64,000 bases of DNA, taken from contig DAHVQG010000003.1 of NCBI GenBank assembly GCA_027317865.1, positions 1 through 64,000 on the forward strand, given 5' to 3'. A program made the translations under genes and the position numbers. A model generated the notes under the pieces. It was not told where the DNA came from. It made no database searches and saw nothing but the letters and a program-made list of their open reading frames with translations. Below, piece by piece: positions 15,236 through 58,716 of this stretch (positions are counted from its first letter, which is position 1; every line of letters starts with the position of its first letter). This DNA comes from Bdellovibrionales bacterium. Its GTDB lineage: Bacteria; Bdellovibrionota; Bdellovibrionia; Bdellovibrionales; UBA1609.

Positions 15236-17629
15236 ATGAAAATGCGGTACGTTTTCTTATTTATGCTTTCGCTTTTAGCCGCGGGGTGCGGAAAAGTCTG
15301 GGTATCTTTGTCTGTCAAGTCGAGCACACCAACCTCGGGCCCAACAACCTACAAACTTGTTTTTACAACCGAACCTTCATCAAGCATTTCGGCCGGTGCA
15401 GCATTGCCGACAGGTGGGGTAATTGAAGTCGAAGACAACAATGGCCATCTCGTATCAACCGGCGCACTCTCGACGGCCACGATCACTTTGTCGGACTCAA
15501 CCGGCAACGGTGGGATTGCCGGTGTTACAACTGTTACAGCTTCAGGTGGTATTGCGACGATTCCAAACAATACGCTAAAATTTGAAAAGAGTGGTTCCAC
15601 AAGTTTAAACGCCTCAGCGACAGTCACGGGATATGGTACGCTCAGTACAAACAGCAGCGCCATCAATATCGCAACGCCCACATTTTCAACGGTAAGTGAT
15701 TTTTCAGGGCCCGATGACCCCAACGGAGAGGTGAATGGTACTGGTACAGCTGCAAGACTTTGGGAGCCTCGCGGTCTCGTTTCTGATGGCACGAACGTGT
15801 ATGTAATGGAAGGTACGCCAAACTGTACGATGCGCGAATACAATATCTCAACCGGTGCGGTCACGACTTTAGCTGGCACGCTCTATAGCTGCGGCTATGC
15901 GGACGGCCTTGCCGGCGCAAATACTCTAGAGCCGGCGGGGGAACTTGCCACTGACGGCACTTATGTCTATTTTGCGAATGGTTGTGGCATTCGACGGGTG
16001 ACGATTGCTAGTGGCGCGGTAACAACAATTGCCGGGAATGCAACCTCCTGTGGATACTCGGACAACACGACGGGCACGAGCGCGCGCTTTGGTGACATTG
16101 GCGGCATTTATCTAAACGGCACGACGCTTTATGTGGGTGACAACGGCAACTGTTATATACGTGCGGTTGATTTGTCGGCGTCGCCCTACGCAGTAACTAC
16201 TGTCGCTGGCAACGGCACGTGTGGCGATGTCGACAATTCTTCGCCGACATCAGCCGAAGTTGAAAGTATGGATTCTTTTTCTGGCGACTCAACCAATCTC
16301 TATTTTACCGATACGACAAACAAGGTCGTTCGGCAAATGGCCTGGGCGGGCGGGGCCATAACAACTGATGCTTCCGGATTTTGCGGCCAGGTGCCAGCCT
16401 ACCTGACTGTTTCTGGTACGACGATGTATGTTTCGTGTCAGTCTATAATTGACGCGGCAACAATTGGCACTTGGTCATGGTCTTCAGTCGCGGGGCAAAG
16501 CTGGGACGGTGGCGAAGTCGACGGGGCAACCGGGACGTCACTAATGGGCACAGGTATTGATGGATACGGTAACTTTCTCTCAGCATATGGCACGAACATT
16601 TATTTCAGTGACACGATGAATGGCGGCCTTCGTGTTCTCAATGGCACAACCGACACAGTTACGACCTTAGCGGGTACTCCAAATTCAGGTACAAATTGGG
16701 TTCAAAACACAACCGCGCTAAACACGCATTTTGAGACTTTGCAAGATTTTGTCAGTGACGGAACGAGCCTCTACGGTTTTGATTTTGGCACTAATTTAAT
16801 ACCAGTGATTTCATTGGCAACGGGGGCATCGGGCTCGCCAGTTGGCTACTCGTCATGGGGTTTTAGTTCGGGCTTCAACCAAGTTCTTGCGTATATGAAT
16901 GGCGAAATCTATTACGCCGACCCGTGCAAAATTTGGGAAGTCAACCCGAGCGCTGATACACGCACGGCGCTTGCCGGTACCGGAACGTGCGGCGAAGTTG
17001 AGGGTAGTTTTGCAACGGCTGAGTTTAAAGGCATCGGGGCCATTGCGACCGACCAGAAGAACATTTTCATTTTTGATAACCACGCGATTAAAAAACTCGA
17101 TATGTCCACTGATACCGTAAGTGTCTTGTCGGGTACGGCTGGGACGAATGGTTGCGCCACCGGTAGTGCGAGCGCATCGCTGTACGATAATAGCGTGACG
17201 GACATGACCTATTTAAACGGCAACCTCTATTTTACCGAATCATGCAATAATTCGGTTGTTGCGGTCAATACAACGACGGGAGCATCAAGCATTGTAGCGG
17301 GTAACGGCACAGAGGGTTATGTTAATAGTACTCTTTTGTCGTCTGAGTTTTGCATCTCAGGGAGCGGCTGCGGTGGATTGCCGATCACAAATGATGGCAA
17401 AAACTTATATGTTGACGATCCTGATAACGGAGCCGTTCGAGAAATTAATTTAGTCGGCAATGCGGTGACAACTCTTTTTGGTTCGCCTAATCAGCGTTGG
17501 CAGGTTGACGGCGCGCTTTCGGGTGCGAGTGAAAGCCCACCGCATCCGGGGGTACCATTTCGAAACATCTACTATGGATATGGCAAACTCTATATCGGTC
17601 ATGCACGCGGGATTCGAGTTGTGCAATAG
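15236..17629 (+). CDS. Surface lipoprotein: Ig-like domain plus NHL-like beta-propeller repeats
   Basis: Lipobox LAAGC; KLVFTTEPS..VIEVEDNNG Ig-like motif; repeated VTTLAG..G..DG / TDGTNLY units. Confidence 0.8.
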   Translation: MKMRYVFLFMLSLLAAGCGKVWVSLSVKSSTPTSGPTTYKLVFTTEPSSSISAGAALPTGGVIEVEDNNGHLVSTGALSTATITLSDSTGNGGIAGVTTVTASGGIATIPNNTLKFEKSGSTSLNASATVTGYGTLSTNSSAINIATPTFSTVSDFSGPDDPNGEVNGTGTAARLWEPRGLVSDGTNVYVMEGTPNCTMREYNISTGAVTTLAGTLYSCGYADGLAGANTLEPAGELATDGTYVYFANGCGIRRVTIASGAVTTIAGNATSCGYSDNTTGTSARFGDIGGIYLNGTTLYVGDNGNCYIRAVDLSASPYAVTTVAGNGTCGDVDNSSPTSAEVESMDSFSGDSTNLYFTDTTNKVVRQMAWAGGAITTDASGFCGQVPAYLTVSGTTMYVSCQSIIDAATIGTWSWSSVAGQSWDGGEVDGATGTSLMGTGIDGYGNFLSAYGTNIYFSDTMNGGLRVLNGTTDTVTTLAGTPNSGTNWVQNTTALNTHFETLQDFVSDGTSLYGFDFGTNLIPVISLATGASGSPVGYSSWGFSSGFNQVLAYMNGEIYYADPCKIWEVNPSADTRTALAGTGTCGEVEGSFATAEFKGIGAIATDQKNIFIFDNHAIKKLDMSTDTVSVLSGTAGTNGCATGSASASLYDNSVTDMTYLNGNLYFTESCNNSVVAVNTTTGASSIVAGNGTEGYVNSTLLSSEFCISGSGCGGLPITNDGKNLYVDDPDNGAVREINLVGNAVTTLFGSPNQRWQVDGALSGASESPPHPGVPFRNIYYGYGKLYIGHARGIRVVQ

Positions 17630-17879
17630 TTGATTGGAGGCCAATTGGCTGCAATTAAATAGGCGGTAATTGAATTGGGCGTTAATTGAAAAATACTGTC
17701 AAGTCTGACACCTATGTTTAACGGTTAAACGACATTTGATTGCTGACCATGGATGTATTGATTGCGCTGAGAACGGGATTTGCAGTCTAGAAGTATGAAT
17801 GGCGACCCTTTTTGTCGCTGGCTCAAAATGAGTCAGTGAGTCTGTGGATAGATAGTATTTAGGAGCGTTATGGGGGCAC

Positions 17880-19559
17880 ATGAAGAAGCAAATTTTAACG
17901 AATTTAACAATTTGTATCGGAGTTTTGGCGCTCGTTACAGTGTTCAATAACTGTAGCGCCGGGTTTACTGCCTCAAATTTTGGCAATAGTTCGGCACAGA
18001 GTGCAAGCACCTCGTCCGGAGGACCCACAAATACCGGGGGCCCAGTGAACACAACGCCACCGAGTCAGTATGCTGCAAATACGTACACAGGTTGGCCGCT
18101 TCAATTTATCGGCATTGATATTTCATCAGCGTATCCAAACATCCAATACTACAACCGCTTTACGGTTCGTGGTGGTTTGTATCCGTACACATTTAAACTT
18201 TTAAAAGCTCCCGCGGGTATGCAGATTCAAACTCGAACAGGCGAGATCAAATGGACGCCGACCCAAAACGACACTTCTGCAAACGTCGAAGTCGAAGTAA
18301 CCGACAGCGCCGGTAATACGCTTACCCACGCCTATACTATTAATGTGACAACGAATGGATTTTATTTTGTTAATTCCGCAAGTGGCAATGACTCAAATCC
18401 GGGGACACTTGCACAACCCTTTCAAACGCTAAATGGCGTGATGGCTAAAAATTTGCCAGGTTCAACTATTTTATATGTGCAAGCCGGTACCTACCCGCTG
18501 AGTGGGTCAATTCAAATGAGCAATATGCCCGGAATTATCATGGCCTATCCCGGTACAAGGCCCGTTATCGACTGTCAAAACCTCGGCAACTGTTTTCATT
18601 TAGATGGAACGGTGAAAAACCCCGTTCTATTTCAAGGCTTTGAAATGGAAAACTGTTCATTTAAGTTCTTTTCGCTAGACGGCTACAAATACAGTGCAAC
18701 CTGGCGAAACAACATCATGCACAACATAAATGTAACAAATCCCAATAACGCTTATGAGAATCCGGCTTTTATTTTCACTTGGGATTACACGAACTCTCCG
18801 ACGCCCGTTTACCAAAATCTGATTGTGCAAAATAATCAATTCTACAACATGCAAAACTATCAAAGCGACATCCATATTGCCGCCTTTACTTGGTATGACG
18901 TTAGCCATTCAGTTGTCGAAGACAACGTGATTCACGACATCAATCGGGGCGCCTGTTTCGACGACAAAGATGACGGTTGGTACAACACCTTTCGCAACAA
19001 TATTTGTTATAACTCAAACCCGTATGGGTTTGATTTCGCGAGTCAATATACAGAGGGGCAAGAAGAGATAAATAACAATTTGTTTATCGGCAATGCGAAC
19101 GATACGGACGCAATCCAAGTAGGGATGCAGCCCGGGTACATTCAGGATGTCTATATTCACAATAATACGATCATAAATGGAACGATTGATTTTGGTTATC
19201 CGTTCTCATTAGCCAATACGCAAAAATTCGTGATTAAAAATAATATTTTTTATATCGATGGCACCGTTAATGTTTCATCGCTGCCGTTCTATCATGGCGA
19301 TCCGTCGGTTATTGGCCAAGACGGTGTTGCGGCCAACAATAACATCTACTGGAGTTCAAATTCGGCCCAGCCGATGATCGCGTGGGGGTGGACGGGCTCT
19401 CAACTTGAATTTTCTGGGTGGCAAAAGCTCGGCTACGATATCAACAGCTCATTTGGCGTTAAGCCCACTCTTTCAACAGACGGGACATACTCGCTGTCAC
19501 CAAGCAATCCCGACTATGGAGCTTACGGTAAAGATTTTTCTGCTGGAGTTTGGCAATGA
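17880..19559 (+). CDS. FNNC-signal lipoprotein: Ig-like domain plus right-handed parallel beta-helix (pectate-lyase-like fold)
   Basis: VFNNCS; APAGMQIQTRTGEIKWTP Ig motif; YFVNSASGNDSNPGTLAQPFQTL; many xxNNxx beta-helix rungs. Confidence 0.8.
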   Translation: MKKQILTNLTICIGVLALVTVFNNCSAGFTASNFGNSSAQSASTSSGGPTNTGGPVNTTPPSQYAANTYTGWPLQFIGIDISSAYPNIQYYNRFTVRGGLYPYTFKLLKAPAGMQIQTRTGEIKWTPTQNDTSANVEVEVTDSAGNTLTHAYTINVTTNGFYFVNSASGNDSNPGTLAQPFQTLNGVMAKNLPGSTILYVQAGTYPLSGSIQMSNMPGIIMAYPGTRPVIDCQNLGNCFHLDGTVKNPVLFQGFEMENCSFKFFSLDGYKYSATWRNNIMHNINVTNPNNAYENPAFIFTWDYTNSPTPVYQNLIVQNNQFYNMQNYQSDIHIAAFTWYDVSHSVVEDNVIHDINRGACFDDKDDGWYNTFRNNICYNSNPYGFDFASQYTEGQEEINNNLFIGNANDTDAIQVGMQPGYIQDVYIHNNTIINGTIDFGYPFSLANTQKFVIKNNIFYIDGTVNVSSLPFYHGDPSVIGQDGVAANNNIYWSSNSAQPMIAWGWTGSQLEFSGWQKLGYDINSSFGVKPTLSTDGTYSLSPSNPDYGAYGKDFSAGVWQ

Positions 19560-19689
19560 AGAGTGCGCAAACGAATACACAGTATTTATCCGAAGCGGGT
19601 TGGAGTGACGGGTTGATATCGGTTACCGCAAATTTAAGTGAATTTACGTCGGGTTAAAAAGTTTGACATGTAATTAAAGGGTAAAAATA

Positions 19690-20661
19690 ATGAGGCGAAT
19701 ATCATTTCAAATTGCAGTCGTGCTCGGTGCAATAGCTCTAGCTACATTATTCAACAATTGCGGAGGAGGCTTCGATGCAAATCCTGTCGCGGTGACTAAC
19801 GCGTCAAATGCAGCGTCCGGCACGTTATCGAATGCACCATCAATCCCGACGTCGAGTGTAATATCAAATAAGTCGGTAACAGTTTTGACCGATCTTGTGG
19901 TTTCATCGAATACGATACCAAATTTACCAGGATGGTCGATTGGCGGCAAAATTCTTTCAGCGCAACCAACTGCACCGCCGCCCGTAAGCGGTGATGCGCC
20001 TTACGCACTTGTGGCGACTTATCCTTCTAGCGGACCGACCGGTATGGGCGGCCCATGGGCGAATTTCAGTGTCGCCGCATTAAATACTGAAAGTATTTAC
20101 ATCGACTTCTGGGCTAAAATGCCCGACGCGAAAGAGGGCTTTAAATTCTGTAAGATTTTTGGTCAAAAGAACAGCCCTGTCGGTTATGCCGATGCAACCT
20201 TTCAAACTGATTACACGGACGTCGCTCAGGGCGGTTTTGTAATGGTCGGGTTTGGCGATGGAACGAATACAATAAACGATGGAGAAAATATAATAAGTTT
20301 AGATGATGGGCCAAATATGAATATAGGACGCGCGACGGGCACTGCGACGGTTCTTACACCACAGATGAGTTATTTTATGCCGTCCGATTGGGGTACTAGT
20401 TGGCATCACTTTCGTATTCATGTCAGGTTCAATAGCGGTACGTCTTCTGCCAATGAGATTTCAAACGGTGAGATCTATTTTGAGATTGATGGCAAGGTTT
20501 ATGTGAAGGCGACGGGGCTCTATAATCGTAATCCGCAAAATGGCCCAATCGATTACATTGGGCTTTTCGGTTGGGCGCAAAATGACCCGCAACCGTTTGA
20601 TATTTGGTACGACAACGTTGTCATTTCAACGGGCGGGTTTGCCTCCGGGCCCGAACTCTAA
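19690..20661 (+). CDS. FNNC-signal lipoprotein with beta-jelly-roll (polysaccharide lyase/LamG-like) domain
   Basis: LFNNCG; IYIDFWAKMP..GFKFCKIFG, WHHFRIHV, IYFEIDG, IWYDNVVIS. Confidence 0.65.
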   Translation: MRRISFQIAVVLGAIALATLFNNCGGGFDANPVAVTNASNAASGTLSNAPSIPTSSVISNKSVTVLTDLVVSSNTIPNLPGWSIGGKILSAQPTAPPPVSGDAPYALVATYPSSGPTGMGGPWANFSVAALNTESIYIDFWAKMPDAKEGFKFCKIFGQKNSPVGYADATFQTDYTDVAQGGFVMVGFGDGTNTINDGENIISLDDGPNMNIGRATGTATVLTPQMSYFMPSDWGTSWHHFRIHVRFNSGTSSANEISNGEIYFEIDGKVYVKATGLYNRNPQNGPIDYIGLFGWAQNDPQPFDIWYDNVVISTGGFASGPEL

Positions 20662-20801
20662 CCGCTGGCCAAAAAATGCAACTGCAGCCCAATCTTTTTT
20701 TGCTAAACTTTGTGAGGTTTCAATAATTTTCGCTAGTCTAGTTTTTTCAAGTTGATCGACAACCTGTTGACTGCAAAGTCCGACATTACATTATTGTAAG
20801 C

Positions 20802-21656
20802 ATGGCCAGGTTGGCATATATTTTTTTGATTTATATTGCGGCTTTGTCAATTCCACATAAAGCCTTCGCGTGGTGTGATAATTGCGGCGCAAACGGTTGC
20901 TGTAGATGCCCAACGGGGCAGGCGCAATGTCTAGGGTCATATTCATCGTGTGAAGAAGCTTGCGGTCTGACGACTCCGGTAGTCGGCGGCGGTTCAAGCT
21001 TGCCTGGAGTGCAGGGCGCGTTCATCCAAGGCGTTATGAACGGATTAATAAATGGCGTACGCAATTCGCAACAACAAAGGCCGTTATCTCCATATCAGAT
21101 TCAACAACTGCAGCTAGAACAACAGCAAGAGCAGCAGGCCGAAATTGCCCGCCTAAAAGCAGAGCAAGAGCGGCAACAAAAAATTCAGGCGTATCTTCAG
21201 GCGAAGGAGCAAGCCAAAAAAGTAAAAGAAGCAAAACTAGATCGCGAGGCTCAAGACGGGATGGATTTACTCAGGTCAAGTCCCGCGCCGGCTCTTTCGG
21301 ATCAGGAGTTGATCGGGCAAGGTCCAAATAACGATGTTCGCGATAAATCTGAGGGTTACCAAAAAGGTTACAATCACGCGATGAATTGTATTTCGCGAAG
21401 TGCGGGTAGTAGTTGTTCGGCGGGTACAGCTCAGCAAACCATTTTATGCGTGCAGCAATACAATGGCGGATATGACGCCGGTTTAGCCAAAGTTCAAATG
21501 GCAATGAAAGAGGCCTACGAATCGGGTGAGCAAGCTGGGCGTAAGGGGCAACTGTCAAACGGTGCGGCTGACCCGCGCGCTAATGGCGGATGTCGTACGG
21601 AGTGGATTGAGTCGTACAATCGAGGATATTTCGCGGGAAAACATTCAAACGAATAG
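20802..21656 (+). CDS. Secreted Cys-rich / coiled-coil hypothetical protein
   Basis: Signal ending AFA; Cys-rich N-terminus, Q/E-rich coil, C-terminal Y-x-x-G-Y-x-x-G repeats. Confidence 0.75.
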   Translation: MARLAYIFLIYIAALSIPHKAFAWCDNCGANGCCRCPTGQAQCLGSYSSCEEACGLTTPVVGGGSSLPGVQGAFIQGVMNGLINGVRNSQQQRPLSPYQIQQLQLEQQQEQQAEIARLKAEQERQQKIQAYLQAKEQAKKVKEAKLDREAQDGMDLLRSSPAPALSDQELIGQGPNNDVRDKSEGYQKGYNHAMNCISRSAGSSCSAGTAQQTILCVQQYNGGYDAGLAKVQMAMKEAYESGEQAGRKGQLSNGAADPRANGGCRTEWIESYNRGYFAGKHSNE

Positions 21657-21668
21657 GGGTCATCAATT

Positions 21669-22655: not shown

Positions 22656-22773
22656 CCAAGAATAAGTATTTTAAGGAAGTGATCGCGGTTTAGCGCCAGG
22701 CGATCACACATAGCAGGGGGTGCGGAGATAGAACGCCCCATCCCGCATTTTTAAAGTTAAGTTGCGGCAATCT

Positions 22774-23274
22774 CTACAAACCGGCAAACGAGCTTGTTGT
22801 CACGAATGTAGTTGAGTTGTTTATAATAACAGCGTGCCACCCAGGGTACTGTCCAAAGACGTCGCCGGGTTTTTGATCACCGCTGTAATGGTAAAGAGGC
22901 AAACCATTATACGTTAGTTGCGGCTGCCCGTCATTGCCGTTAATGACTCCAAAAGGCGATGAGACTTGATCGCCCGCCGGAACATGCATCGGCGGCCACT
23001 CGGATAGACAACTGCCACTGCAGTTCGAAACATTCGTCGTATCTTGATCGAATGTATAAAGAGACATGCCATTTCTATCAGTCATTATAGTGGCAGGTCG
23101 ACCGTTCACAGTCGTATTTAACTCTGATACAAGATTTGTGCCGATTATCGAACCCGCCGTAGCATTTGTGCTTCCGGCAAGATGTGCATGGGCGTTTCCG
23201 GCACAGGCGACAAGTCCCGCCACAACCAAATAGTAGCCGCCTATTCTAATTAGCAACTTTAATTTCGTATTCAT
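22774..23274 (-). CDS. COG4315-type lipoprotein (Y-x4-D repeats)
   Basis: LVAC lipobox; GMSLYTFDQD..C.G.C...WPP, QLTYNGLPLYHYSGD..PGD. Confidence 0.88.
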   Translation of the reverse strand: MNTKLKLLIRIGGYYLVVAGLVACAGNAHAHLAGSTNATAGSIIGTNLVSELNTTVNGRPATIMTDRNGMSLYTFDQDTTNVSNCSGSCLSEWPPMHVPAGDQVSSPFGVINGNDGQPQLTYNGLPLYHYSGDQKPGDVFGQYPGWHAVIINNSTTFVTTSSFAGL

Positions 23275-23336
23275 TTTGCCCCCCTAATAGGTAAAATTAG
23301 CCTGGATGAGGTATACCCTATTTTAATTTTCATAAT

Positions 23337-23353
23337 ATTGTTAGAATAACAAT
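23337..23353. promoter_or_regulatory. LysR-type operator (T-N11-A inverted repeat)
   Basis: ATTGTT-AGAAT-AACAAT between the divergent lipoprotein and LysR genes. Confidence 0.55.
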
Positions 23354-23419
23354 TTAAAAATGCCTTAAATACAATATGTGTTTTCAAGAAATGAGTTTAG
23401 CGTGAAATCAAAGAGAAAA

Positions 23420-24328: not shown

Positions 24329-27226
24329 CTATTCAAGCGACATCGGATAGATTGGTGTCGTATTGTCGGTTATCGTGCCGTTGCCGAGATTTCCGGCGTA
24401 GTTGTGTCCCCAGCATTCAAGGTTGCCAGAGACAATCGCACATTGCGTGTATATATCGCTTTGAACGTAGCCACCTGAGAAATCGGTTACGCCGCTAGAG
24501 AATTCGGTTAAAACATCGTTTGACCAGTTATAGCCCCCGATACCATTACCGCCCCCCATTTCGCCACCCCAACAATATAGCGCACCAGTCGATGAAATTG
24601 CGCAAAATGCTGAGACATTATATATTCCGTAAATTGCAAAAACGCCTGACGTCAGCGGCGATTCATTTGACGCAACGGGCGTGGTTTGGTTTCCAGAATA
24701 AGAATTGTCAGCCACTCTGTTGTCGTTAGCAAAACCCCAGCAATAAACAGACCCAGAAGTGTTGAGTGCACATGTGGTAGTGTAACCTAGATTATTAGAT
24801 TGTTGGACACTGACGATCCCCGATGTAAGGCCAATGACTTGCACGGGTGATGATTCATATGTGGTTGTACCATTTCCGACTTGGCCCTGCGAATTGCCAC
24901 CCCAGCAATTGAGATCGCCACCCGTGAGAATTACACATTTGACATCGTCATCGCCCACGCTAGAGACCCCTGAACCGATACCAATAATGGTTTGAGGCGT
25001 GCCCGTGTACAAGGTGTTACCAAAATCGTATCCCCAACAATAAAGTGCATAGGATGTGGAAGTCGCGCAGGCATCGCCGGCAGTCATCGAAATTGACGAG
25101 GCGAGAATCGGCGATCCGCTTAGTTTAACTTCGGATGGAGTGGATGTGCCACCCCCTCCTGTGTCGCCCCAACACCACACGGTATTGTTCGATTCTAGTG
25201 CACACGCCCAATCATTAGAAGTGGAGTTACCTTCACCAGTTAAAACTTTTGTAACGCCACTTACCCCGCTTACTGTCACCGGCGCAAGACTCGATGTTGT
25301 CGTGCCATTGCCCAAATTGCCGCCGTCGTTATTGCCCCAACATTTGACGGCGCCCCCAACTACGGCGCAAGTGAAATTGCCAGCAGTGGATACGTCTGTG
25401 AGAAGAGATGTCGATGTGCTGTCAAGGTTGAAAGAGGCCGATGTCATGCTGGTTGCGGATGCAGTTATAGTCGAGGTTTCCGTTGCCGAATCTTCAACAT
25501 AAAATGTTTGGCTAGAGGAGCCAACGCCGATCGACACGCTAGATATCGGAGGTCCAGTGCAACTTGAACTGCTATTGGGTGCTGCCGAACCCGTCGCGCT
25601 CAAATTGACGGTCATGGCACTGCCCGAGACCGGGCTTGGGTTTCCGTATTGGTCTGTATCGGTAACTGTTAGTGGCACGCACGTACCCGGGGCTTCGAAA
25701 GTTGGCCCCGTTATTATGAGTGTTTGGGGCGTGGTAGCGTTGACGGTGACAGTTGTCCCAAGTTGTGTACCAGAGGGCGGCGAATTAACTCCAAGATACC
25801 CGCTCGTTTGCCCCCATGTGATGTAAGGGTCAAAAGATTCGGCGCGAATGTCTTTTGTATACAATGTTGCGCTGGTGGCACCTGATGAAAACCACATTGG
25901 GCTAGTCAAGGGGGTGGTGCAAGCAGCATCAGTATAAAATTGACTTGAGCCGGCCGTAATGCCGGCGAGATCGCCGGAATTTGTGCCGCCACCAATTGCG
26001 GTTGTGGCGCCGTTGTTATCTTCAAATGTAACTGTAACCTGTTGGCAAGTTCCTGCGGCAAATGAAGTTGATGAATACGCGGTGACGACGGCGTTGACGA
26101 TCCATGTACTGCTGTCAGTTGGGGTTTGGGTGAGGGTGGTTGCGGTTGCGTAATCGCCTTCGCTTTCTGAAACGCTATCGGTTAAGTAAATATTTGGCGT
26201 GCTCGACGATCCAGCTGATATTGTCGATGTCGTAGTCTGCGTCGAGCAGGCGGAGTCGGAATAAAACTTAGCACTACCTGATGGCACAAGAGTAAGGTTG
26301 ACGGCGGAACTGGAAACAGTAGCTGTGTTACCGTATTTATCCTCAACGCCGATCTGAACGGGCGTGCATTGATTGACGAATGGGTTCCCGTAAGGCGCCG
26401 ACGTCCACACGAGTTGCGACGGCGTACCAGCGGCAACGTTGATCGCACTGGAACAAGCGCCTGAGAGCCCACTTGCTGAAGCGCCAATATAGAATGTCCC
26501 GCTTTTTGTATAATTCACTCCCGCAAACGTCGCGACACCCGACGTTGGAGTAAGCGGATTGGTCGTCGCACTGAACGTACCGGTCCCGGCGCTCGTGCAC
26601 GCGCTGTCGGTATATGCAGCAAGAGTCACGGCATTAGAAGCTGAGGTCACAACGTTACCGTAAGTGTCTTCAATGGTGATGCCCGGCTGGGTAGAAAGCG
26701 CGATCCCGGCTGTGCCACTCGCGGAGGGTTCGGTTGAAAAGATAAGTTTTGAAGGGTTACCTGGAGTTATGGTGATGGCATTTGAACACGCACTGGTCAG
26801 GCCGCTCGAAGAAGCGCCGATGTAAATTGTTGTGGAGGGGCCAGTCAACGTGACTCCATAATTAACCCCAGCAAACGAAGCAACGCCAGATGACGCTGCC
26901 AAACCATTATTGGTTATAGTAAAGGTGCCTGAAGCCGGCGTTGTGCACGTTGAATTTGTGTACGCTGCGAGCGTGACCGTGTTTGTCGCTGAAGTCACGA
27001 TATTGCCCTTTGCATCTTCGATTTCTATAACCGGTTGGGAGCTAAATGTAACCCCTGCGCCGGCGGTTGAAGAAGGTTGAGTTTGAAAGGCGAGCTGCGT
27101 CGGTGGGCTTGCTGGGGCGTTCGCATTTGCCGCAAAGGGCGTATGAATTGAAAGCGTGCAGGCGGTTGTTAGGCTAAATATAACCGCACAGAAAAGCAGA
27201 ATAAACGGCCTTAATGTGCTTTTCAT
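24329..27226 (-). CDS. Large surface lipoprotein: Ig-like repeats plus C-terminal RCC1 beta-propeller
   Basis: LTTAC lipobox; repeated LxFxTxPS..QPxIxIEDxxGN domains; multiple TCA..G.V.CWG.N..G.LG.G repeats. Confidence 0.85.
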   Translation of the reverse strand: MKSTLRPFILLFCAVIFSLTTACTLSIHTPFAANANAPASPPTQLAFQTQPSSTAGAGVTFSSQPVIEIEDAKGNIVTSATNTVTLAAYTNSTCTTPASGTFTITNNGLAASSGVASFAGVNYGVTLTGPSTTIYIGASSSGLTSACSNAITITPGNPSKLIFSTEPSASGTAGIALSTQPGITIEDTYGNVVTSASNAVTLAAYTDSACTSAGTGTFSATTNPLTPTSGVATFAGVNYTKSGTFYIGASASGLSGACSSAINVAAGTPSQLVWTSAPYGNPFVNQCTPVQIGVEDKYGNTATVSSSAVNLTLVPSGSAKFYSDSACSTQTTTSTISAGSSSTPNIYLTDSVSESEGDYATATTLTQTPTDSSTWIVNAVVTAYSSTSFAAGTCQQVTVTFEDNNGATTAIGGGTNSGDLAGITAGSSQFYTDAACTTPLTSPMWFSSGATSATLYTKDIRAESFDPYITWGQTSGYLGVNSPPSGTQLGTTVTVNATTPQTLIITGPTFEAPGTCVPLTVTDTDQYGNPSPVSGSAMTVNLSATGSAAPNSSSSCTGPPISSVSIGVGSSSQTFYVEDSATETSTITASATSMTSASFNLDSTSTSLLTDVSTAGNFTCAVVGGAVKCWGNNDGGNLGNGTTTSSLAPVTVSGVSGVTKVLTGEGNSTSNDWACALESNNTVWCWGDTGGGGTSTPSEVKLSGSPILASSISMTAGDACATSTSYALYCWGYDFGNTLYTGTPQTIIGIGSGVSSVGDDDVKCVILTGGDLNCWGGNSQGQVGNGTTTYESSPVQVIGLTSGIVSVQQSNNLGYTTTCALNTSGSVYCWGFANDNRVADNSYSGNQTTPVASNESPLTSGVFAIYGIYNVSAFCAISSTGALYCWGGEMGGGNGIGGYNWSNDVLTEFSSGVTDFSGGYVQSDIYTQCAIVSGNLECWGHNYAGNLGNGTITDNTTPIYPMSLE

Positions 27227-27356: not shown

Positions 27357-28535
27357 CTATGGTACCCCATAAGAAATACCTAAACTGATAGCATTTATTT
27401 TGATTGAAATTTCATTTTGTAAAAGATTGACTTGCCGGTAACTCAAATTGAGAGAAAGGCTGCGCTGGTTGCGATATGTTCGCGTCCACCCGATGCCACC
27501 GTTTAATTCATGGCTAGCAAAACTCAAATTAAATTGTGAATCGACGGGCGTATAACGAAGATAAGCGTCGAAAGCATTTTTGTTATCTGGGGAGTATGTA
27601 AGAACAGGGAACAATTCGGGCTCCCACAAGTTGGTATAGCCAAAATTCATTCCTGAAGGGAGCATGGTTGAATAATATACTCCACCAGCAATTGCGACTG
27701 ACCATTTTTGAGGGTGTATCGAAATGAGGTAAATCAAGTCGGCGCCGAGGCCAAAAAATCGGGCGGACATTTGATTTGAATCCGTTGAAAACGGCGTTGT
27801 TGTAACTAGGTCAAGAAGCGAGCGCGCCTTAAAAGTCCAGTGGTTGGCAAGAGTTTGTCGATATAAAATATTTCCGGCTATTGACGTTTCGTCTAACTTA
27901 TTTAAGTTTGTCTGCGAGTACGCAATCGAACGCGCCGAGAAGCCAAAGTTCCATCGCGAATGTTTTTTCGCTATTTGATTTTTTTCAGCCTTTTTAACTA
28001 GATTATGTTTTACCAGATGGGCTTTTAATTTACTCTGTTTAAGCGACAGAATCAGAACATACGGTTGTGCAAGTAAAGGCGGTTTAGACGCACGAAAAGG
28101 AATTTGAACGTGCCCGTAGGGCAGCGTGAGCGACAGGCTGAATCGACCATTTGAACCAACAGTAATTTCTTTTGAACTTGGCGCCATTTTTCTGATCGAT
28201 TGATTTTGTACACTGAGATGCGAATTGATCGCGACCGTACCAGGTTGCAGTTGAATTATTACTCCAGGCTGAGCCTTGCCGTTAAGTTGTACGCGAACAT
28301 AATCCGGGTCAATTTGTTGATAAGTTGTTTTTAGCCACTGAACTTTGACAGTATCATTGCCTTGCGGTAACGGGGCCGTTTGAATTCGTGATTTCAGGAT
28401 TTTTGATTGCTGAATAGAAATAGCGGTGGCCGGGTTTGACCACGTGGCCGAAACAAAAAAGATGATCAAAAGCGTGTGCCGCGACAAAGCACCGATCACA
28501 CGTTTAAATGAAATCGTGCGGACATAAAACATCAT
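27357..28535 (-). CDS. Predicted outer-membrane protein (N-terminal beta-sandwich plus C-terminal beta-barrel)
   Basis: Signal peptide; alternating hydrophobic strands; C-terminal ISLGISYG. Confidence 0.65.
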   Translation of the reverse strand: MMFYVRTISFKRVIGALSRHTLLIIFFVSATWSNPATAISIQQSKILKSRIQTAPLPQGNDTVKVQWLKTTYQQIDPDYVRVQLNGKAQPGVIIQLQPGTVAINSHLSVQNQSIRKMAPSSKEITVGSNGRFSLSLTLPYGHVQIPFRASKPPLLAQPYVLILSLKQSKLKAHLVKHNLVKKAEKNQIAKKHSRWNFGFSARSIAYSQTNLNKLDETSIAGNILYRQTLANHWTFKARSLLDLVTTTPFSTDSNQMSARFFGLGADLIYLISIHPQKWSVAIAGGVYYSTMLPSGMNFGYTNLWEPELFPVLTYSPDNKNAFDAYLRYTPVDSQFNLSFASHELNGGIGWTRTYRNQRSLSLNLSYRQVNLLQNEISIKINAISLGISYGVP

Positions 28536-29263: not shown

Positions 29264-29269
29264 GTCCTA

Positions 29270-47432: not shown

Positions 47433-47452
47433 GTTGTGTTGAGGGCAAGTTG

Positions 47453-52400: not shown

Positions 52401-52652
52401 GGGTCTGAGACGATTCGCCCAATGGCGGTTGTCACCATCGGTGGCGTGATTGTTGCGACATTTTTGACCTTACTTGTCGTACCGTGCGCTTACTCACTTC
52501 TTGCGCGGTTTGAGAATCGCCAACACGAAGGTGAAATTCGCGAAGCGGTCGAGAGTCTCGAAGTTGAAGCCGCCGAAAGATATCAAAAACTTATTGGCCG
52601 TAAACGCGTTCAAGATCCACGCCCATCAACTTCCGAGCCGTCGCGAGCGTAA
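49452..52652 (+). CDS. RND efflux permease (AcrB/HAE1 family)
   Basis: IRRPV, GIVVDDAIMVLENI, KKNSIL, RLRPILMTS. Confidence 0.96.
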   Translation: MTLSDLSIRRPVFAWMLMLGLIVFGLISYSRMGVSQFPDVDFPIVTVTVTWTGASPETMESAVADVIENAVMDIQGVRSVTSNCQEGLSTTTIEFNLNKNIDAAVQEVDADIGQAQKQLPPDIDPPIVQKANPTDQPIMWITLTGGKSLRQLVLFVRDHLLDALTTVEGVGDINEGGYVDPDMRVWLNSKEMNEREITVSDVISALQAGTILTPSGYMDNGPKETNVQIMSQAQTAKQFGDLVIPTRNGQPVWSIIRIRDVAHVDAGLADIRRISRVNGQRTVGLGIILQPGANAVNVANRVKAKVAQIDKILPPGLHLRVVVDGTTFIRAAVRELIRTLIISALLTSLVCWLFLGSMSSAFNVVLAIPTSLIGAFIVMYFAGFTLNSFTLLALSLAIGIVVDDAIMVLENIVRYHEMGYSKVRAALVGAREITGAAVAASMAILAIFMPVVFMGGIVGKFFFQFGVAMSVTVLLSLLEALTLAPMRCAQFLHVGEVNVLSRGVGRGMDRLTVIYKKVLGWSLDHRWSVIGIAFAVFFSSLFIAKKLRKEMVPSQDISRFLITMYTPLGSSLQHTNKVFKKAEAFFKSRPEIETYFVAIGGFQGGLVNQGNIFIMMKDPGKRGVYPPFRHEPTQQQFMSFVRKHLKAIKGVTRVSLMDLSQAGFSAQRGYPITFSLQGPSWHMLAQLAKKLMLKMRKSGLMTDVDTDYNPDMPELRIIPDRAKAAARGVTIENIANSISALVGSLVVGQYTDSAGHRDDIRVQLMSKFDRTPNDIRKIMVRNIQGQMVPLASVVKFENKPSLLTITRYDRQRTISLFANVKHGKSQAAALDYVEHLRKILPPNYDLIESGSSKTFKQTQRNLLMAMALGILFAYMVLGTQFNSFIHPFVILLALPFSVTGAFIALWITGISLNMYSMIGLILLMGIVKKNSILLVDFTNNRRAKGMGVREALLDACPVRLRPILMTSAAMVTASLPEALAIGAGSETIRPMAVVTIGGVIVATFLTLLVVPCAYSLLARFENRQHEGEIREAVESLEVEAAERYQKLIGRKRVQDPRPSTSEPSRA

Positions 52653-53928
52653 TCAGATAATCAAAATGGGTTGAGATGAAAAGCTTTTCGGCATTGTAGC
52701 GAGTTGTCTGTACGTCCAACACATCTTGAGTTGTTGCGATACCACGCCGGTAGTCGCTCATTCCGCGAATTAAAGCCTGGCGGGCAATGAGGTCGGCTTG
52801 GCGCGCGAGTAGTAGGCGTTTGTAGCTCGCTTTTAACTCGGTAAGTTCAGACTGTAGTTGTGCTCCGATCTGCAATTGCGAGGCTTCGAGGGCACGTGTT
52901 GCGCTTTCGGTTTGCTCCGCGTAGCTACGTCGCTTGTAAATGGAACTGAGCCCCGAGAACAACGGCACTTTGAGCTCCAGCATGACTTGTGAAAAGTTAT
53001 TATTGGGATCAATCCACATCGACGCGTTTGCCGATTGGTAACCGTATTCACCGGTCAAATAAAGGCTGGGCATATCTTGCGACAAGTCTACGGCCTTTTG
53101 ATTGGCAATTTCGTTACGTTGTTTTTTAAGCAGCAAAATGTCGGGATTATCGACCATGGCTTTTGCCACGGCATCGATGGTGTTGAGGACTTCGACCTTT
53201 TCTGAAACTAATTTAGTTGGTACAGCAATTTCAGGCGGCTCGGGGAGCGCCAAAAGTTGGCGCAATTGCTCTAGTTGCTGCTTGAGTTGTGACTCGGCAT
53301 TATTTTGGTCGGCTCGCGCTGAGAGCAGATTAACGTCGGCCTGCATTTCATCAATGACGCGCGCGCGGCCAATTTTACGGTAGTACCGTATGACATTGTC
53401 GTAGTTACGCAGGATTTCGACGTTTTTAGTCGCCGCGTGGGCGAGGTGATATTGTTCAGCATAATTGTAATATGCCGTCACAAGATTCAGCACAAGATTT
53501 TGCTTATCCGATTGATTTTGAAGCATTTGAGCTTGTTCCATTTGCCGGCGCAAGGCAATGCCACTTGAAATCAATCCGCCAACGTAAAGTGGCTGAGATG
53601 CTCCGATATAGCTTTTGTAAAACTGGTTGCCGAACATCGCCGATAGCGGGCTGCTGGTTGTAGTTGAAGTGAAACCCGCATAGTGGTTCATTGTTTCGCT
53701 GGCGTCGGCGTAAATAGTCGGAAACACTCCCGCTTTATATTCGTTCGTTTGTGCGCGCATGCTGGCCAGACTGGCGTCGTCTTTTTTAATTATGGGCGAG
53801 CGATCAATGCCAATTCGCACAATTTCTGCCAATTGCAATTTGCGGGCTTGGCTTGTGCTCGAAATGAAGACAGCTGCTGCCAAAAATAAGAAGGTCGCAA
53901 GCCGTGTTGCTTCGTGAGTAATTCTCAT
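52591..53928 (-). CDS. TolC-family outer membrane efflux protein
   Basis: Signal peptide; QPLY.GG, ELKVPLFSG, YRRG.....DVL; GAGGTG RBS before ATG 53928. Confidence 0.92.
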   Translation of the reverse strand: MRITHEATRLATFLFLAAAVFISSTSQARKLQLAEIVRIGIDRSPIIKKDDASLASMRAQTNEYKAGVFPTIYADASETMNHYAGFTSTTTSSPLSAMFGNQFYKSYIGASQPLYVGGLISSGIALRRQMEQAQMLQNQSDKQNLVLNLVTAYYNYAEQYHLAHAATKNVEILRNYDNVIRYYRKIGRARVIDEMQADVNLLSARADQNNAESQLKQQLEQLRQLLALPEPPEIAVPTKLVSEKVEVLNTIDAVAKAMVDNPDILLLKKQRNEIANQKAVDLSQDMPSLYLTGEYGYQSANASMWIDPNNNFSQVMLELKVPLFSGLSSIYKRRSYAEQTESATRALEASQLQIGAQLQSELTELKASYKRLLLARQADLIARQALIRGMSDYRRGIATTQDVLDVQTTRYNAEKLFISTHFDYLITLATARKLMGVDLERVYGQ

Positions 53929-54094
53929 GTTGAACACCTCATTCATCCATAGTTTAGAAGATGCCTGACTGCGTGCCCAGACCTGAAATTGTTGAAGGAA
54001 TGTTAAAGATAGGCTATGAATTGTGGCTTCGTAACGGTGATTAGTCACTTCGAGTCGCGATTCGCCGATATTTTGGCAAACGGATCGTGGATAA

Positions 54095-54170
54095 GCGGGT
54101 GTAGCTCAGTTGATAGAGCGTCGGCTTCCCAAGCCGAAGGTCGTGGGTTTGAGACCCATCACCCGCTCCA
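54095..54170 (+). tRNA. tRNA-Gly(CCC), non-canonical A19/U56
   Basis: GCGGGTG...TCGGC-TTCCCAA-GCCGA...GTGGG-TTTGAGA-CCCAT...TCCA. Confidence 0.92.
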
Positions 54171-54262
54171 AGCTAAGGTTTTGAAAACCTTAAGCTTACC
54201 GGATCGCGACCCACCTTCGACTTAAGTTTATTTAGGATCTTGCCACAAATTTGCCACGGATT

Positions 54263-54553
54263 TCATTCAAGATTATAGCCAATGGTTTCGTATACGTTTT
54301 TCAGCAGAAATATCGTAGGGTTTAATTCTGCGATAATTACTTTCAATTGGTCACATTCAGATTTCAACTCTGTCATCGCGATTGTCGTTGAATCAAAAAT
54401 GGGCTCGTTGGGCGTATTTAACCTTCGGCCCTGTCCAATCCAGTACTTTGCTGTTGTTCGAGGAATATTGAGATGAGGGAATAGGTTTGTTCGTCCCGTT
54501 TTTACAAATAGCGATTTTACCCACGGCTCATAAGAAGCATACTTACGTCGTCT
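54263..54553 (-). pseudogene. N-terminal fragment of a putative transposase
   Basis: 97-codon open frame with no start codon at its 5' end, RRKYASYEPWVK...TNLFPHLNIPRTTAKYWI; resembles the HTH N-terminus of DDE transposases (recalled, not searched). Confidence 0.45.
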
Positions 54554-56732
54554 TTACTGATAATCGCGGCGCAGTTAACCACATAACAGTGTTACTCATA
54601 CTCGTACAGCGCAATATTATTATTTACAGTTAAAACTGCGTAAATTTTCGAGTTGAGAGTAAATAGAGAATCAACGACTTCACCGCTCGGTGCTAAGGTT
54701 GACATTTGCGTAACAGTACTGCCGTTGTATGAATAAAGATGCGGCTTTCCTGAAGCATCGTTGGCTTGAAAATAAACAATTGAATTGATCACCGCTTCCA
54801 GAATTGGTGAATCGTTGCCTCCCCCGCTAGTATTCGAAATTTGGGAAACAGATGTACCATCATACTTGTATAAATGCTGATTTGAATTCGCATCGTTATT
54901 TATAAAAAAAAGATTTGGCCCGTCAAAGTCGAGAGCGCTTGGACTATCAGTGCTTGCGTTGGTGATTTGTTTCACAGTCGAACCATTATAGTAATATAGG
55001 TGTTGTGTGCCTCCGGAATCGTTAGCAGTAAAATAAAGTGTGGATCCATTGAGGGTTAGATTTGACGGACCGTCATTACCGCCCCCGCTTGTATTTGAAA
55101 CCTGCGCTACTGTTGTGCCATTGTAAAAGTAAATATGGTCATCTCCACTTGAATTGTGCGCTGAAAAATAAATTCCTGAACTTGTCGGGGTAAAAAGACT
55201 GTAATAGCTATTTGCATAACCTAAAATAAAACCGCCAGACTGGTTTAGATCGCTATTGCCTGGTCCAGATGTCGATGACACTTGAAGTACCGAGGTGCCA
55301 TTATAAAAATACAAGTGCGAGTAACCTCCACTGTCTTCTGCGCCAAAATAAAACCCAGAGCCCGAGAGAGTTAGATCGCCAGGATAATCGTTGCCGCCGG
55401 AGCTTGTATTTGAAATTTGTGTGACGGTTGAACCGTTATAGACATAAATATGTTCGTCACCTGTTGAGTTGGCTCCAACAAAATATAAATTTGACCCGGA
55501 TACCGTTAGGTTTTGCGGATGATCACTGCCGCCCGAGCTGGTGTTTGAAATTTGGGTCACGCTTGTGCCATTGTAGCAATAGATATGACTTTTAGATGAA
55601 GCCACGCCAACAAAGCAAAGGTTCGTACCGAACGGCGTCAGGTATAAAATATTTTGAAAGTTCGTGGCTGTGATTTGTGATGCAGTTGAACCGTTATACA
55701 TATAGACGTTTTCTTGCCCGAGTGCATTTGCCGCCGTGAAATAAAGATTGCCGTTGAGCGGGGTTAGGTTACTTGCAATATAGCTGGCGAAGTCGTTGCC
55801 GCCATTTGTGTTTGTGGTATTCGAGACTTGTTGAAAATGGGTGCCGTCGAAACTGAAAATATGTTCACGTTCTATGTTATTAAGTTGGCCCCACAGTGAG
55901 TCGTAATAAGGGCCTGAAAAGTTTTCTGAATCAATGGAGTAGCTCGTTAGAGTCGTAAAGTAGGCGTTGTTACCGCCAATAGTTGGAGTGCCAATGTTAT
56001 CGTCGCCCGCAACGTTATTGCTAGGTTGGCTGAGCTTTGAAACGGAGCTGCCATTGTAAAGATACAAGTGAGTATAGCCGCTAGAGTCGGCCGCCGAAAA
56101 ATAGACATTGCTCCCTGAAATTCCGAGCACCGTAGCGGCATCCCCTCCCGATGGGTTAGTCGATGAAATTTGCGTTACGTTTGTCCCGTTATATAAATAA
56201 AGATGTCCGTAACCGTTTGAGTCATGTGCTGAAAAATACAGATCGCCGCCTGAAACCATGAGGCCAAATGGATTGTCATTGCCGCCAGAGCTCGTATTGG
56301 AAATCTGTGTGACGGTTGAGCCGTTCGTGTAATATACGTGATAATCTCCTGTTGTAGTCGGGTCGTCGACAAAATAAGCATCAGTTCCGGATGCAACAAG
56401 GTCGTAGTCTGAAGCTGAGTTTGATAGTAAAGTAGTTGAGGAGCCATTATAAACAAAGAGTTGGAAAAAATTAAAATAAACATTCGAACCTGCGGGGACG
56501 GCATTGGTAAAATTGCCCGCTGACGTTAAGCTGTAAAGGTTGGATATGGTGCTGCCATTAAAACTACCCAGGGTTTTGAGAAACGTTGAGCTATTTAGGT
56601 AACCAAAATAAACTTTACCAGAACCGGCAAAGAGTCCGCTTAAGGCCATTAATCCCGTGGGCACTGATGTAGTTGTGCTACCATTCCAAGCATAAACATA
56701 GGTGTGGTTGATCCAATACAGATATGCGCCGA

Positions 56733-58089
56733 GAGGGCGAAAATTTTTTTGTGTAAACCAACCAAGTTAATAGATCAGTTCACAGTTTCTGGGATGCGGT
56801 CGCCAAAAACAATTTTTAGCTGACCGAGCATCTGAGCCCAGCCGAGCTTACTCTTAAACGCCCCCTTTAAGTCAAGTGTCGCGAGATAGAGCATCTTTTT
56901 TAAAGCGTCGTCCGTTGGGAAGGCGCCCTTGGTTTTCGTGACCTTGCGGTACTGACGGTGCAGCGCCTCGACGGCATTTGTCGTGTAAATCATTTTTCGT
57001 ATCTCCGGCGGAAAGGCGTAAAATGTCGATAAATTCGTCCAGTTATTCTTCCACCCCGCAACAGCAGACGGACACTTTGGCGACCACTTTTCATCGAGCT
57101 TTAATAAATTTGTCTCGGCCACGTCGAGCGTCGGCGCCCGGTAAACCTCTTTCAGATCCGCCAGAAATTCCTTGTGATACTTCGAGCCCAAGTAACGAAG
57201 CGACGCCCGAATTTGGTGCACCACGCAGAGCTGAATCCGCGTATTCGGGTACGCACTTTCGATAGCCTCTGGGAAGCCCTTAAGTCCGTCGACACAAGCG
57301 ATTAAAATATCCTTCACGCCGCGAAGCTTGAGGTCGTTTAAAACCGTCAGCCAAAAATGGGCGCCTTCGGTTTCAGCAAGCCACAGGCCAAGTACATCGA
57401 CTTTGCCGTCGAGATTGATGCCCATGCAGGTATACGCGGCTTTCGATATGACCTTGGCGTCCTGGCGGATTTTGTAGTGGATAGCATCCATAAAAACCAC
57501 CGCGTAAACGTCGTCAAGAGCCCGCTGTTGCCACGCTTGCACGCCCTCTAAGACTTTATCGGTGATTTTTGAAATGAGCGCCTGCGACACTTCAGTGCCA
57601 TAAAATTCTTGCAGCTGTTGGCCGATATCGCGAGTCGACATCCCGCGTGCGTACATCGATGTCACGCGTCTTTCGAGATCGGGATCGAAGCTTTGGTGCT
57701 TAACCACAAACTGCGGCTCGAACGTGCCTTTGCGATCACGGGGGATTTCGATTTCAACTTCGCCCGAAGACGTTTTTATTTTTTTTGTTGAAAATCCGTT
57801 CCGACTGTTATCGGGAGATTTACCGTTTTTCTGATACGGCTCGTAACCGAGATGCGCCTCTTGCTCCGCTTTCAAAATTCTCTCGACGGTGCCCTTAATC
57901 ATTTCTTGCACAACGCCATTACTTCCTGTGAGATCAGAAAGTGACTTCACATTCTTAAGCATCTCCGTCACTTTCGCGACGTCGAACGGTGGGATTTCTT
58001 TTTCCATTTTCCAGCTCCTTCCATGGGTGGACTTCAAAAATCCTAACCCATATTGTTTGGGCTGGTTACACAAAACTTTTTACACTCCC
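56733..58089 (-). mobile_element. Intact IS256-family element (1357 bp)
   Basis: IRs GAGGGCGAAAATTTTTTTGTGTAA / GGGAGTGTAAAAAGTTTTGTGTAA; 8-bp TSD TGCGCCGA at 56725-56732 and 58090-58097. Confidence 0.95.
56775..58007 (-). CDS. IS256 family transposase
   Basis: RNG, IPRDR.G.FEP, MYARGMSTRD, DGLKG, QLCVVH, YTTNAVE; AAGGAG RBS. Confidence 0.96.
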   Translation of the reverse strand: MEKEIPPFDVAKVTEMLKNVKSLSDLTGSNGVVQEMIKGTVERILKAEQEAHLGYEPYQKNGKSPDNSRNGFSTKKIKTSSGEVEIEIPRDRKGTFEPQFVVKHQSFDPDLERRVTSMYARGMSTRDIGQQLQEFYGTEVSQALISKITDKVLEGVQAWQQRALDDVYAVVFMDAIHYKIRQDAKVISKAAYTCMGINLDGKVDVLGLWLAETEGAHFWLTVLNDLKLRGVKDILIACVDGLKGFPEAIESAYPNTRIQLCVVHQIRASLRYLGSKYHKEFLADLKEVYRAPTLDVAETNLLKLDEKWSPKCPSAVAGWKNNWTNLSTFYAFPPEIRKMIYTTNAVEALHRQYRKVTKTKGAFPTDDALKKMLYLATLDLKGAFKSKLGWAQMLGQLKIVFGDRIPETVN

Positions 58090-58716
58090 TGCGCCGACGC
58101 CCACTAACTCTAATCCGTAGCTTCCAGGATTTGCGACATCCGATCCGCCCGGGTTGTTATTTGAAATTTGCACAGTTGTTGAGCCATTGTATTCATAAAC
58201 ATGGCTGTGCGAAGCGGAGTCATCGGCAACATAATAAAGATCGCCACTCCACCAGGTTAAATTTGTTGGAGAATCGTTGCCGCCGGCGCCTGCCGTGCTC
58301 GAAATTTGAAACACTTTTGAGCCATCGTATTCGTAAACATGCTGATTCCCAGTCGAGTCGTTGGCTACGAAATAGAGATTTGTATTATCGGTAACGAGAT
58401 CCGTCGGGGTATCGCTGCCCCCGTTGCTTGTATTAGAAATTTGTACTGCATTTGTGCCGGTGTACTCAAATACATGTTCACCTGTTGTGCCTGTAGCCAC
58501 GTAATACGGCGTTGACCCGACGAACACCATGTCGTGGGGATCTTCGCTTTGGTTGGTGTACGAAACACGTATCATCTGTAGCTGAGTTTGTGGCTGCTGG
58601 TGCACTGTGATTTCAACCCATACCTTTCCACAACCTGTAAGGCTGATCAAAGGTGCCAGAAATAAAATCATTGCGACTAAAGCCGCTAATCGGAAACGTC
58701 CAGTCCGCATAATTAC

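Follow-up and report, generated by a model that had tools for sequence, protein, structure and literature searches.

A post-lipobox tag, CGKVWV, on otherwise unrelated lipoproteins of Bdellovibrionales, and an outer-membrane barrel family as its candidate partner

What function could keep two large lipoproteins alike at one place only, the residues directly after the lipobox cysteine? The question is raised by a 64,000-nucleotide stretch of Bdellovibrionales DNA, the window (contig C33:1-64000 of genome G000, 2.65 Mb in total). Its genes at 15236 (+) and 58710 (-) both read G|CGKVWV at the lipobox, in the codons that the original prediction had quoted, and continue as SLSVK and EITVH, respectively. 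Their bodies are dissimilar, as predicted: a BLASTP match covers only 30 columns of signal peptide plus the shared element, hereafter the CGKVWV tag. Our answer is that the tag is probably a recognition element for a common partner at the outer membrane. The two genes are laid out as follows.

15236..17629 (+): tagged lipoprotein of 797 amino acids, with signal peptide, tag, Ser/Thr/Pro linker, one Ig-like stalk domain (about residues 40-145) and an NHL-type propeller region
15287..15319 (+): its tag, CGKVWVSLSVK (Cys+1 to +11), with the Cys at 15287
58090..58710 (-): 5′ part of the second tagged gene, with signal peptide, tag and first propeller repeats, ending in copy 1 of a target-site duplication (58090-58097)
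58600..58632 (-): its tag, CGKVWVEITVH (Cys+1 to +11), with the Cys at 58632

For the DNA search, the motif was loosened to C-G-[KR]-[VLI]-W-[VFLI], so that members were selected by the motif itself. This pattern stands right after the lipobox Cys in 18 large lipoproteins of three related Bdellovibrionales genomes: G000 (6 of its 8 matches are so placed), G006 (9 of 9) and G005 (3 of 3). All six matches in four further genomes of the genus (G001-G004), and one from another search, were off-frame or not at a lipobox and were dismissed; the genus genomes scanned are 78-97% complete. Exact CGKVWV occurs five times among the 32,451 six-frame open reading frames (ORFs) of G000, always at a lipobox after a hydrophobic signal (CGKLWF is one further variant there), while the chance expectation is 7e-5 among 232 lipoprotein candidates. 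The tag was found at no in-frame lipobox in the rest of the 109 family genomes, where eight matches were off-frame or not at a lipobox, and the two matches outside the three genomes among 401 phylum genomes were of the same kind. Large genome and metagenome collections yielded 160 pattern matches and added no new lineage: seven passed the lipobox filter, of which three were antisense or low-complexity and four identical to genes already counted. The reservation attached to the original prediction, that the motif might be confined to two genes through shared ancestry, therefore falls away with 18 genes in three genomes.

The 18 proteins fall into seven body clusters without similarity beyond residue +14; the largest holds ten proteins, joined by a common stalk or NHL repeats. 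NHL, GLUG, SBBP, FG-GAP and CSLREA/He_PIG bodies are all found on the tag, among others. The predicted protein-level conservation across a mix-and-match family is thus borne out, on at least seven unrelated bodies. Among seven representatives with unrelated bodies, codon positions 1 and 2 of the tag are 89% identical, a value that partly follows from picking by motif; the informative part is the contrast with the four-fold third positions within the tag (33%), the DNA of the signal peptide (35%) and the ten codons that follow the tag (27%), all near saturation. The tag also shows regularities of its own: W+5 is invariant, K/R stands at +3 in 18/18 and D/E between +2 and +6 in 0/18, residues +4, +6 and +8 are hydrophobic in 18/18 (+8 lies outside the search pattern), +10 is often hydrophobic and +11 is K/R in 11/18. 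Because the amino acids are kept while synonymous sites are saturated, and because +8 is hydrophobic throughout, the tag appears to be selected as a peptide, with the period of a one-sided beta-strand. That it is real and under selection we regard as nearly certain.

The tagged genes have their upstream layout in common as well. In the window, the following elements precede the two genes.

15221..15227 (+): FliA/sigma-28-like -10 box GCCGATA, 8 nt before the ATG; a leaderless or near-leaderless mRNA is predicted
58718..58724 (-): a second GCCGATA -10 box of FliA/sigma-28-like type, 7 nt ahead of the ATG; the -35 position reads TAAT
15170..15178 (+): TCAATTTGA palindrome, a putative operator, with related words upstream of three other tagged genes

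A [GT][CT]CGATA box lies 7-12 nt before the start of 15/18 tagged genes, against 2/174 other lipoprotein candidates and 48/1,917 long ORFs, and TAAG is found at -35 spacing in three of the six tagged genes of G000. In B. bacteriovorus, TTAAG-N16-CCGATA marks 92 of 140 attack-phase promoters, including those of cell-surface anchors (PMC3627812). Since most tagged genes carry -10 boxes of this sigma-28 type, since FliA is encoded in G000 and since they fit this consensus, albeit one from B. bacteriovorus, the tagged genes are probably attack-phase genes with near-leaderless expression, in a lineage that we take to be predatory. An index search listed no RNA data sets containing 54600-59300. The TCTCAA-N-TGA / TCAATTTGA palindrome stands ahead of four tagged genes at a distance of about 50 nt (including 15170-15178 and 58757-58767) and may be an activator site.

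Because of the common upstream layout, the tag likely spread from one ancestral 5′ cassette of promoter, signal and tag, with selection then keeping the tag. A stricter version would make the tag a neutral relic of such a cassette, recombined with its promoter, signal peptide and first codons onto different bodies. The shared -10 box, short leader and TCTCAA-N-TGA-like upstream word speak for it, as do the signal peptides of tagged genes, slightly more alike than random ones (21% vs 12%); but W+5 is invariant amid saturated synonymous sites, and signal and linker codons on either side of the tag are divergent, which makes neutrality very improbable.

The ORF of the second tagged gene, at 58710 (-), encodes only 214 aa because an insertion sequence (IS) splits a gene of 917 codons, which the earlier reading overlooked. 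The remaining parts of the locus are these.

54592..56724 (-): 3′ part of the IS-split tagged gene, propeller repeats
56725..56732 (-): target-site duplication, copy 2
56733..58089 (-): IS256-family element of 1357 bp with imperfect terminal inverted repeats and a Mutator transposase (56775-58073)

Without the element, 54592-58710 forms one frame of 917 codons with no stop. The transposase matches PF00872 (E 1e-109), the terminal repeats agree at 18 of 28 nt and the target duplication is 8 bp; a Mutator-type transposase, terminal inverted repeats and an 8-bp duplication are the marks of the IS256 family, in which we place the element. Contigs of all four sequencing runs examined skip exactly this element, so the intact 58710 allele exists in nature and the insertion is polymorphic in natural samples. 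One of the runs has the element extending into different DNA near 58969. The insertion may be an on/off switch of the 58710 surface gene, or a recent hit. The window DNA is present in mine-drainage and wastewater metagenomes (five data sets from two studies with at least half of its words, one possibly the source).

As to the predicted tips, three different types of propeller, one is firm and two are less so. RCC1 is supported by Pfam. The NHL tip of the 15236 protein has no direct Pfam match and is recognised through homologues only, PF01436 being found on most of those listed beyond the nine closest. The ELWxxDGT-like tip is weak (TIGR04534, E 0.002-0.006, far below the cut-off).

If the tag is recognised, by what? 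The candidate partner is a family of outer-membrane proteins that is represented in the window by the first of these two genes.

27357..28535 (-): clade-A outer-membrane protein, with signal peptide, Ig-like domain (about residues 61-165) and a predicted 10-stranded OmpT/OpcA-like barrel (193-391)
24329..27226 (-): lipoprotein of 965 amino acids, with the clade-A-type tag CTLSIH (Cys at 27160), Ig-like stalk repeats and an RCC1 propeller

The 27357-28535 product is modelled as an Ig-like domain plus a 10-stranded barrel (predicted local distance difference test, pLDDT, 85). Its barrel is close in fold to OmpT/OpcA (7xw0: Z 21.0, root-mean-square deviation (rmsd) 2.5 over 195; 2vdf: Z 19.3, rmsd 2.7 over 190) at a sequence identity of 7-8%, and its Ig part resembles SiiE (Z 8.2). 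The family matched no Pfam, NCBIfam or PDB sequence family; the best E values of PDB sequence searches with the two barrel profiles were 0.54 and 0.9, and ESM Atlas searches with both clades returned only unnamed clusters under 0.9. The barrel has five paralogues in G000, and its relatives make up 822 sequence clusters at 50% clustering, with the family present in 74/301 phylum genomes. The barrels of the genus form two clades of eight (A) and five (B) rows (Shimodaira-Hasegawa-like approximate likelihood ratio test, SH-aLRT, 100 in a quick tree); the fold was modelled for clade A only. At L247:4362-6137 (G000, contig C11), a FecR (PF04773) gene converges on a 253-aa clade-B barrel without Ig domain. 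At L077:4672-5493 (G006), a truncated clade-A barrel gene has an apparent lipobox and C-terminal residues like the end of RCC1 cargo genes, possibly a deletion fusion of barrel and cargo.

It is the gene neighbourhoods that tie these barrels to post-Cys tags. Of the six Ig-barrel genes of G000, five have a neighbouring lipoprotein gene whose product carries a short post-Cys tag; the sixth runs to the end of its contig. Clade B stands head-to-head with a CG[KR]xW gene at three of the four Ig-bearing loci (CGKLWF, CGKVWV and CGRVWV), each time with a different body type, and two of these three barrels are only 33% identical. Clade A directly precedes a C[STG]xx[IL] lipoprotein at each of the five loci that are intact and have DNA downstream (of the other three, two stop at contig ends and one is truncated), with cargo starts CTLSIH, CTSYIR, CTTSIS, CGATLA and CSTYIR. 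The tag and clade B co-occur in the same three of 109 family genomes, at ratios of tagged genes to clade-B barrels of 6:2, 9:1 (G006) and 3:1. Full-length clade-B matches are restricted to these three genomes, from which the profile was built, whereas the other 27 matching genomes reach about 1e-20 at best, mostly over the Ig domain. Across the phylum, 9/40 barrel loci adjoin a Ser/Thr/Gly/Asn-rich lipoprotein against 18/261 other genes there (p 0.004, with kin not independent); an alternative count of 14/59 was set aside, as 20 of its loci had been chosen partly after seeing neighbours and about two of its lipoprotein calls are doubtful.

The original prediction had linked the two CGKVWV genes to the barrel at 27357-28535. 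A link between the families is real, but that particular barrel belongs to clade A and sits with the CTLSIH gene, whereas the CGKVWV-linked barrels are of clade B and lie on other contigs. The 27226 gene is likely the second gene of an operon with 27357-28535 and its protein, not those of the two CGKVWV genes, the likely partner of this barrel. As had been noted, the 27226 protein starts CTLSIH and has an Ig-like stalk in common with the 15236 protein (37% over 75 aa, E 2e-6): the motif LxFxTxP..IxIEDxxG occurs once in the latter and three times in the former, while the 58710 gene is without such a stalk.

Our best single guess, held tentatively and at rather less than even confidence, is that the tag is a beta-strand by which interchangeable adhesins dock on a clade-B barrel. 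The post-Cys tag is predicted to form an amphipathic strand, in which hydrophobic +4, +6 and +8 (often +10) would lie on one face and K/R+3, W+5 and polar +7/+9 on the other. This strand would pair with an edge strand that the barrel protein offers in the sheet protruding above the membrane or in the Ig domain, and the docked lipoproteins would be displayed on the cell surface as interchangeable, likely attack-phase adhesive tips; we infer lipidation, surface exposure, adhesion, timing and tag-barrel binding for the tagged proteins. With many cargoes for one or two clade-B barrels, the tag would be kept fixed; clade-A barrels would each have their own cargo in cis, and their tags would have drifted. 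Proteins of this kind would probably not fit through a barrel of ten strands, which makes a socket a better guess than a channel. Strand donation of the classic type is less favoured, judging from clade A, whose Ig domain models as a complete sandwich on its own (pLDDT > 90). The idea that clade-B barrels lack one strand, which the tag completes, was dropped when alignments by eye showed ten strands in both clades. The clade-B barrel of contig C40 (residues 22-372, 53 aligned rows) was co-folded with residues 1-32 of the 15236 protein (12 aligned rows); both runs scored 0.00 with controls that did not fold, and the result is used neither way. A single-sequence fold of the 15236 tag plus stalk reached pLDDT 33.

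Several observations weigh against docking on the barrel. A barrel adjoins only three of the 18 tagged genes, and the single clade-B barrel of G006 is an orphan. One ancestral arrangement is probably the origin of all three head-to-head pairs, and tag and clade B occur together as a single event among three kin genomes, the source of the clade-B profile itself. The sigma-28-like box, present in clade-A barrel genes (CCGAT in 6/8, CCGAAA in 2/8), is found in 0/5 clade-B genes. Across the phylum, lipoprotein and signalling genes are both missing from the neighbourhood of 29 of 69 barrel loci. In genus g41, of the same order, lipoproteins carry another tag: no barrel lies within two genes of C-[ST]-[LI]-[DE]-A-x-[IL] at any of the 13 loci listed, and two of the three g41-type genomes have one distant barrel homologue, inside a FecR-like operon. 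Finally, an FxNC-type lipoprotein adjoins 10/17 tagged genes (a 59-aa contig-end fragment being left out) against 39/2,183 genes of G000 (1.8%). Since barrels and tagged genes both adjoin FxNC-type genes, in the same islands, their adjacency may at least in part reflect clustering in surface-gene islands.

These same data bear on a first rival, in which the tag is an export signal for a general lipoprotein surface-translocation machine, similar in role to the lipoprotein export signal (LES) of Bacteroidota, with the barrels as mere island neighbours. The 15 tagged genes without a barrel neighbour and the g41 propeller lipoproteins, with their own tag and no adjacent barrels, fit it. F or W at +5 or +6 occurs in 13/46 other Ser/Thr/Gly/Asn-rich lipoproteins of G000 against 12/106 (six members removed; p 0.016), which also counts against docking, and PMC5080379 describes a post-Cys signal that suffices to target proteins to the surface. 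Such a signal would leave unexplained why tag class matches barrel clade and why one genome holds several distinct tag classes, and the alternating strand of the tag is long next to the short, acidic LES; we consider a general signal rather unlikely. Only docking on clade B would explain the matched tag and barrel classes, a head-to-head pair kept across body swaps, and tight conservation with many cargoes per barrel.

The FxNC-type neighbours suggest a second rival: the tag could pair lipoproteins, with another tag or with the FxN|C-S-x-x-F tag of a neighbour, or could sit in the membrane surface via W+5, giving mixed assemblies without a barrel. The window has two such neighbours.

17880..19559 (+): FxNC-type lipoprotein (FNN|CSAGF), of the class most often beside tagged genes, adjoining the 15236 gene
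59316..59918 (+): divergent FxNC-type lipoprotein (FQN|CAKNPNL)

Beyond their excess beside tagged genes, six of the ten FxNC neighbours are co-oriented downstream and nine have F at +5. The other four are convergent or divergent, their bodies vary, and barrel loci adjoin FxNC genes too, as expected from common islands. We hold pairing to be unlikely, more so than general export. G000 has further post-Cys classes, C[GS]xVxF[ST] (6), CSxGF-like (8) and CAKNPNL (4), many with FQN/FNN lipoboxes and clustered beside tagged genes; those of the window are at 17880-19559, 19690-20661 and 59316-59918.

A third possibility, compatible with docking, is that the tagged lipoproteins are sensors in a chain from lipoprotein to barrel, FecR-like protein and HAMP-SpoIIE phosphatase, with the tag as the joint between sensor and barrel. 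FecR-like or HAMP-SpoIIE genes lie no more than three genes away at 17 of the 69 phylum barrel loci (a lipoprotein gene is the neighbour at 28); a FecR-barrel fusion exists in G004, the small clade-B barrel of G000 adjoins its FecR gene, and FecR-adenylate cyclase-TPR clusters are described in Campylobacterota (PMC9239204). Such neighbours are absent, however, from all four Ig-bearing clade-B and all eight clade-A loci, and the FecR-HAMP pair of G000, on contig C3, has no barrel beside it. We judge this chain improbable.

Outside the genus of the window, g41 offers a parallel tag. In g41 (loci L199-L218 of G152, G124 and G102), 15 lipoproteins from 20 loci carry C-[ST]-[LIM]-[DEN]-A-x-[ILF], five of the 15 with a -10 box. 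These tags head propeller lipoproteins of 400-1,240 aa with RCC1, DUF5122 or BNR bodies, and a few proteins of 70-80 aa. The FecR-like operon with the barrel converges on a gene for a lipoprotein of RCC1 type, about 1,080 aa long. An order-wide tag pattern was rejected as a count, being too loose (57/61 genomes matched, controls similarly), and served only to fetch the g41 loci. In family f24 (L096, L101, L104 and L111), C-x-K-A-[KE]-L lipoproteins lie within three genes of barrel homologues and are possibly another tag class. At L248:7465-9738 (G004), the FecR domain fused to a family barrel immediately precedes a fibre-like gene of 2,001 aa with a start presumably like that of mosaic adhesive trimer (MAT) fibres; this fusion is a possible lead to the MAT anchor.

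Taken more widely, Ig plus 10-stranded barrels in Bdellovibrionota might work as sockets that capture lipoproteins by a lineage-specific post-anchor beta-strand, in matched tag and barrel classes, with one barrel of the CGKVWV class carrying up to nine attack-phase prey-binding heads. This generalisation is doubtful, more so than docking in the CGKVWV class itself. If it is true, lipoproteins would have a new route to the surface, prey recognition would have another source besides MAT fibres, and ten residues would serve as a display tag. How Bdellovibrio-like predators recognise their prey has been explained only in part, and a 2026 review calls the routes of many lipoproteins to the outer surface poorly understood (PMC13721041). 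The finding names a ten-residue tag, an unannotated candidate partner family and a group of surface proteins, probably of the attack phase, whose tips are interchangeable; the analogous tag class of g41 makes the question testable in cultured relatives.

How does this compare with known systems? The LES of Bacteroidota, K-(D/E)2 or Q-A-(D/E)2, is charge-dependent (Lauber et al. 2016, PMC5080379). Like the CGKVWV tag, it is a short conserved sequence directly after the lipidated Cys of proteins with unrelated bodies (here, 18 genes in seven clusters); unlike it, the CGKVWV tag is not acidic but a basic and hydrophobic, predicted alternating strand with an invariant Trp, is limited to three genomes and is linked to a barrel gene family. 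Slam consists of TPR and a 14-stranded DUF560 barrel, with cargoes that have an 8-stranded C-terminal barrel (PMC5449769, PMC13721041), and 185 of 353 Slams adjoin a lipoprotein gene (Hooda et al. 2017, PMC5449769). Here, too, an outer-membrane barrel with an N-terminal soluble domain is often encoded beside a lipoprotein gene (5/6 in G000, 9/40 phylum loci), but the family has an Ig domain and ten predicted strands in place of TPR and DUF560, with no Pfam match on the barrels, and its cargoes have only an N-terminal tag in common, matching propeller, GLUG and Ig families and none being TbpB-like. A PF04575 search of G000 gave no match, with the controls silent too. MAT fibres are trimeric, with a conserved N-terminal domain of about 130 aa and an anchor stated to be unidentified (Caulton et al. 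2024, PMC10769870). They too combine a constant N-terminal element with variable adhesive tips in a Bdellovibrionota predator, whereas the tagged proteins are lipoproteins with propeller or beta-helix tips, whose constant element is a tag of about ten residues instead of that domain.

Donor-strand complementation in chaperone-usher pili (PMC13721041) likewise uses an N-terminal strand with alternating hydrophobics, a feature that the residue pattern suggests here; in contrast, the modelled clade-A partner shows no incomplete acceptor Ig fold, the loci examined hold no chaperone or usher, and several cargoes have no Ig domain. The barrel at 27357-28535 has the OmpT/OpcA fold but differs by its added Ig-like domain, its low identity and the lack of a PDB sequence relative. 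No description of CGKVWV or of the barrel family, and no Bdellovibrio paper combining lipoprotein, motif and propeller, was found in the literature searched, subscription journals being largely outside it; passages of PMC13689555 mention neither lipoproteins nor barrels. The CGKVWV system is like LES in position, like Slam-cargo pairs in gene layout and like MAT fibres in logic, and it is set apart from all three because it is without the defining features of each.

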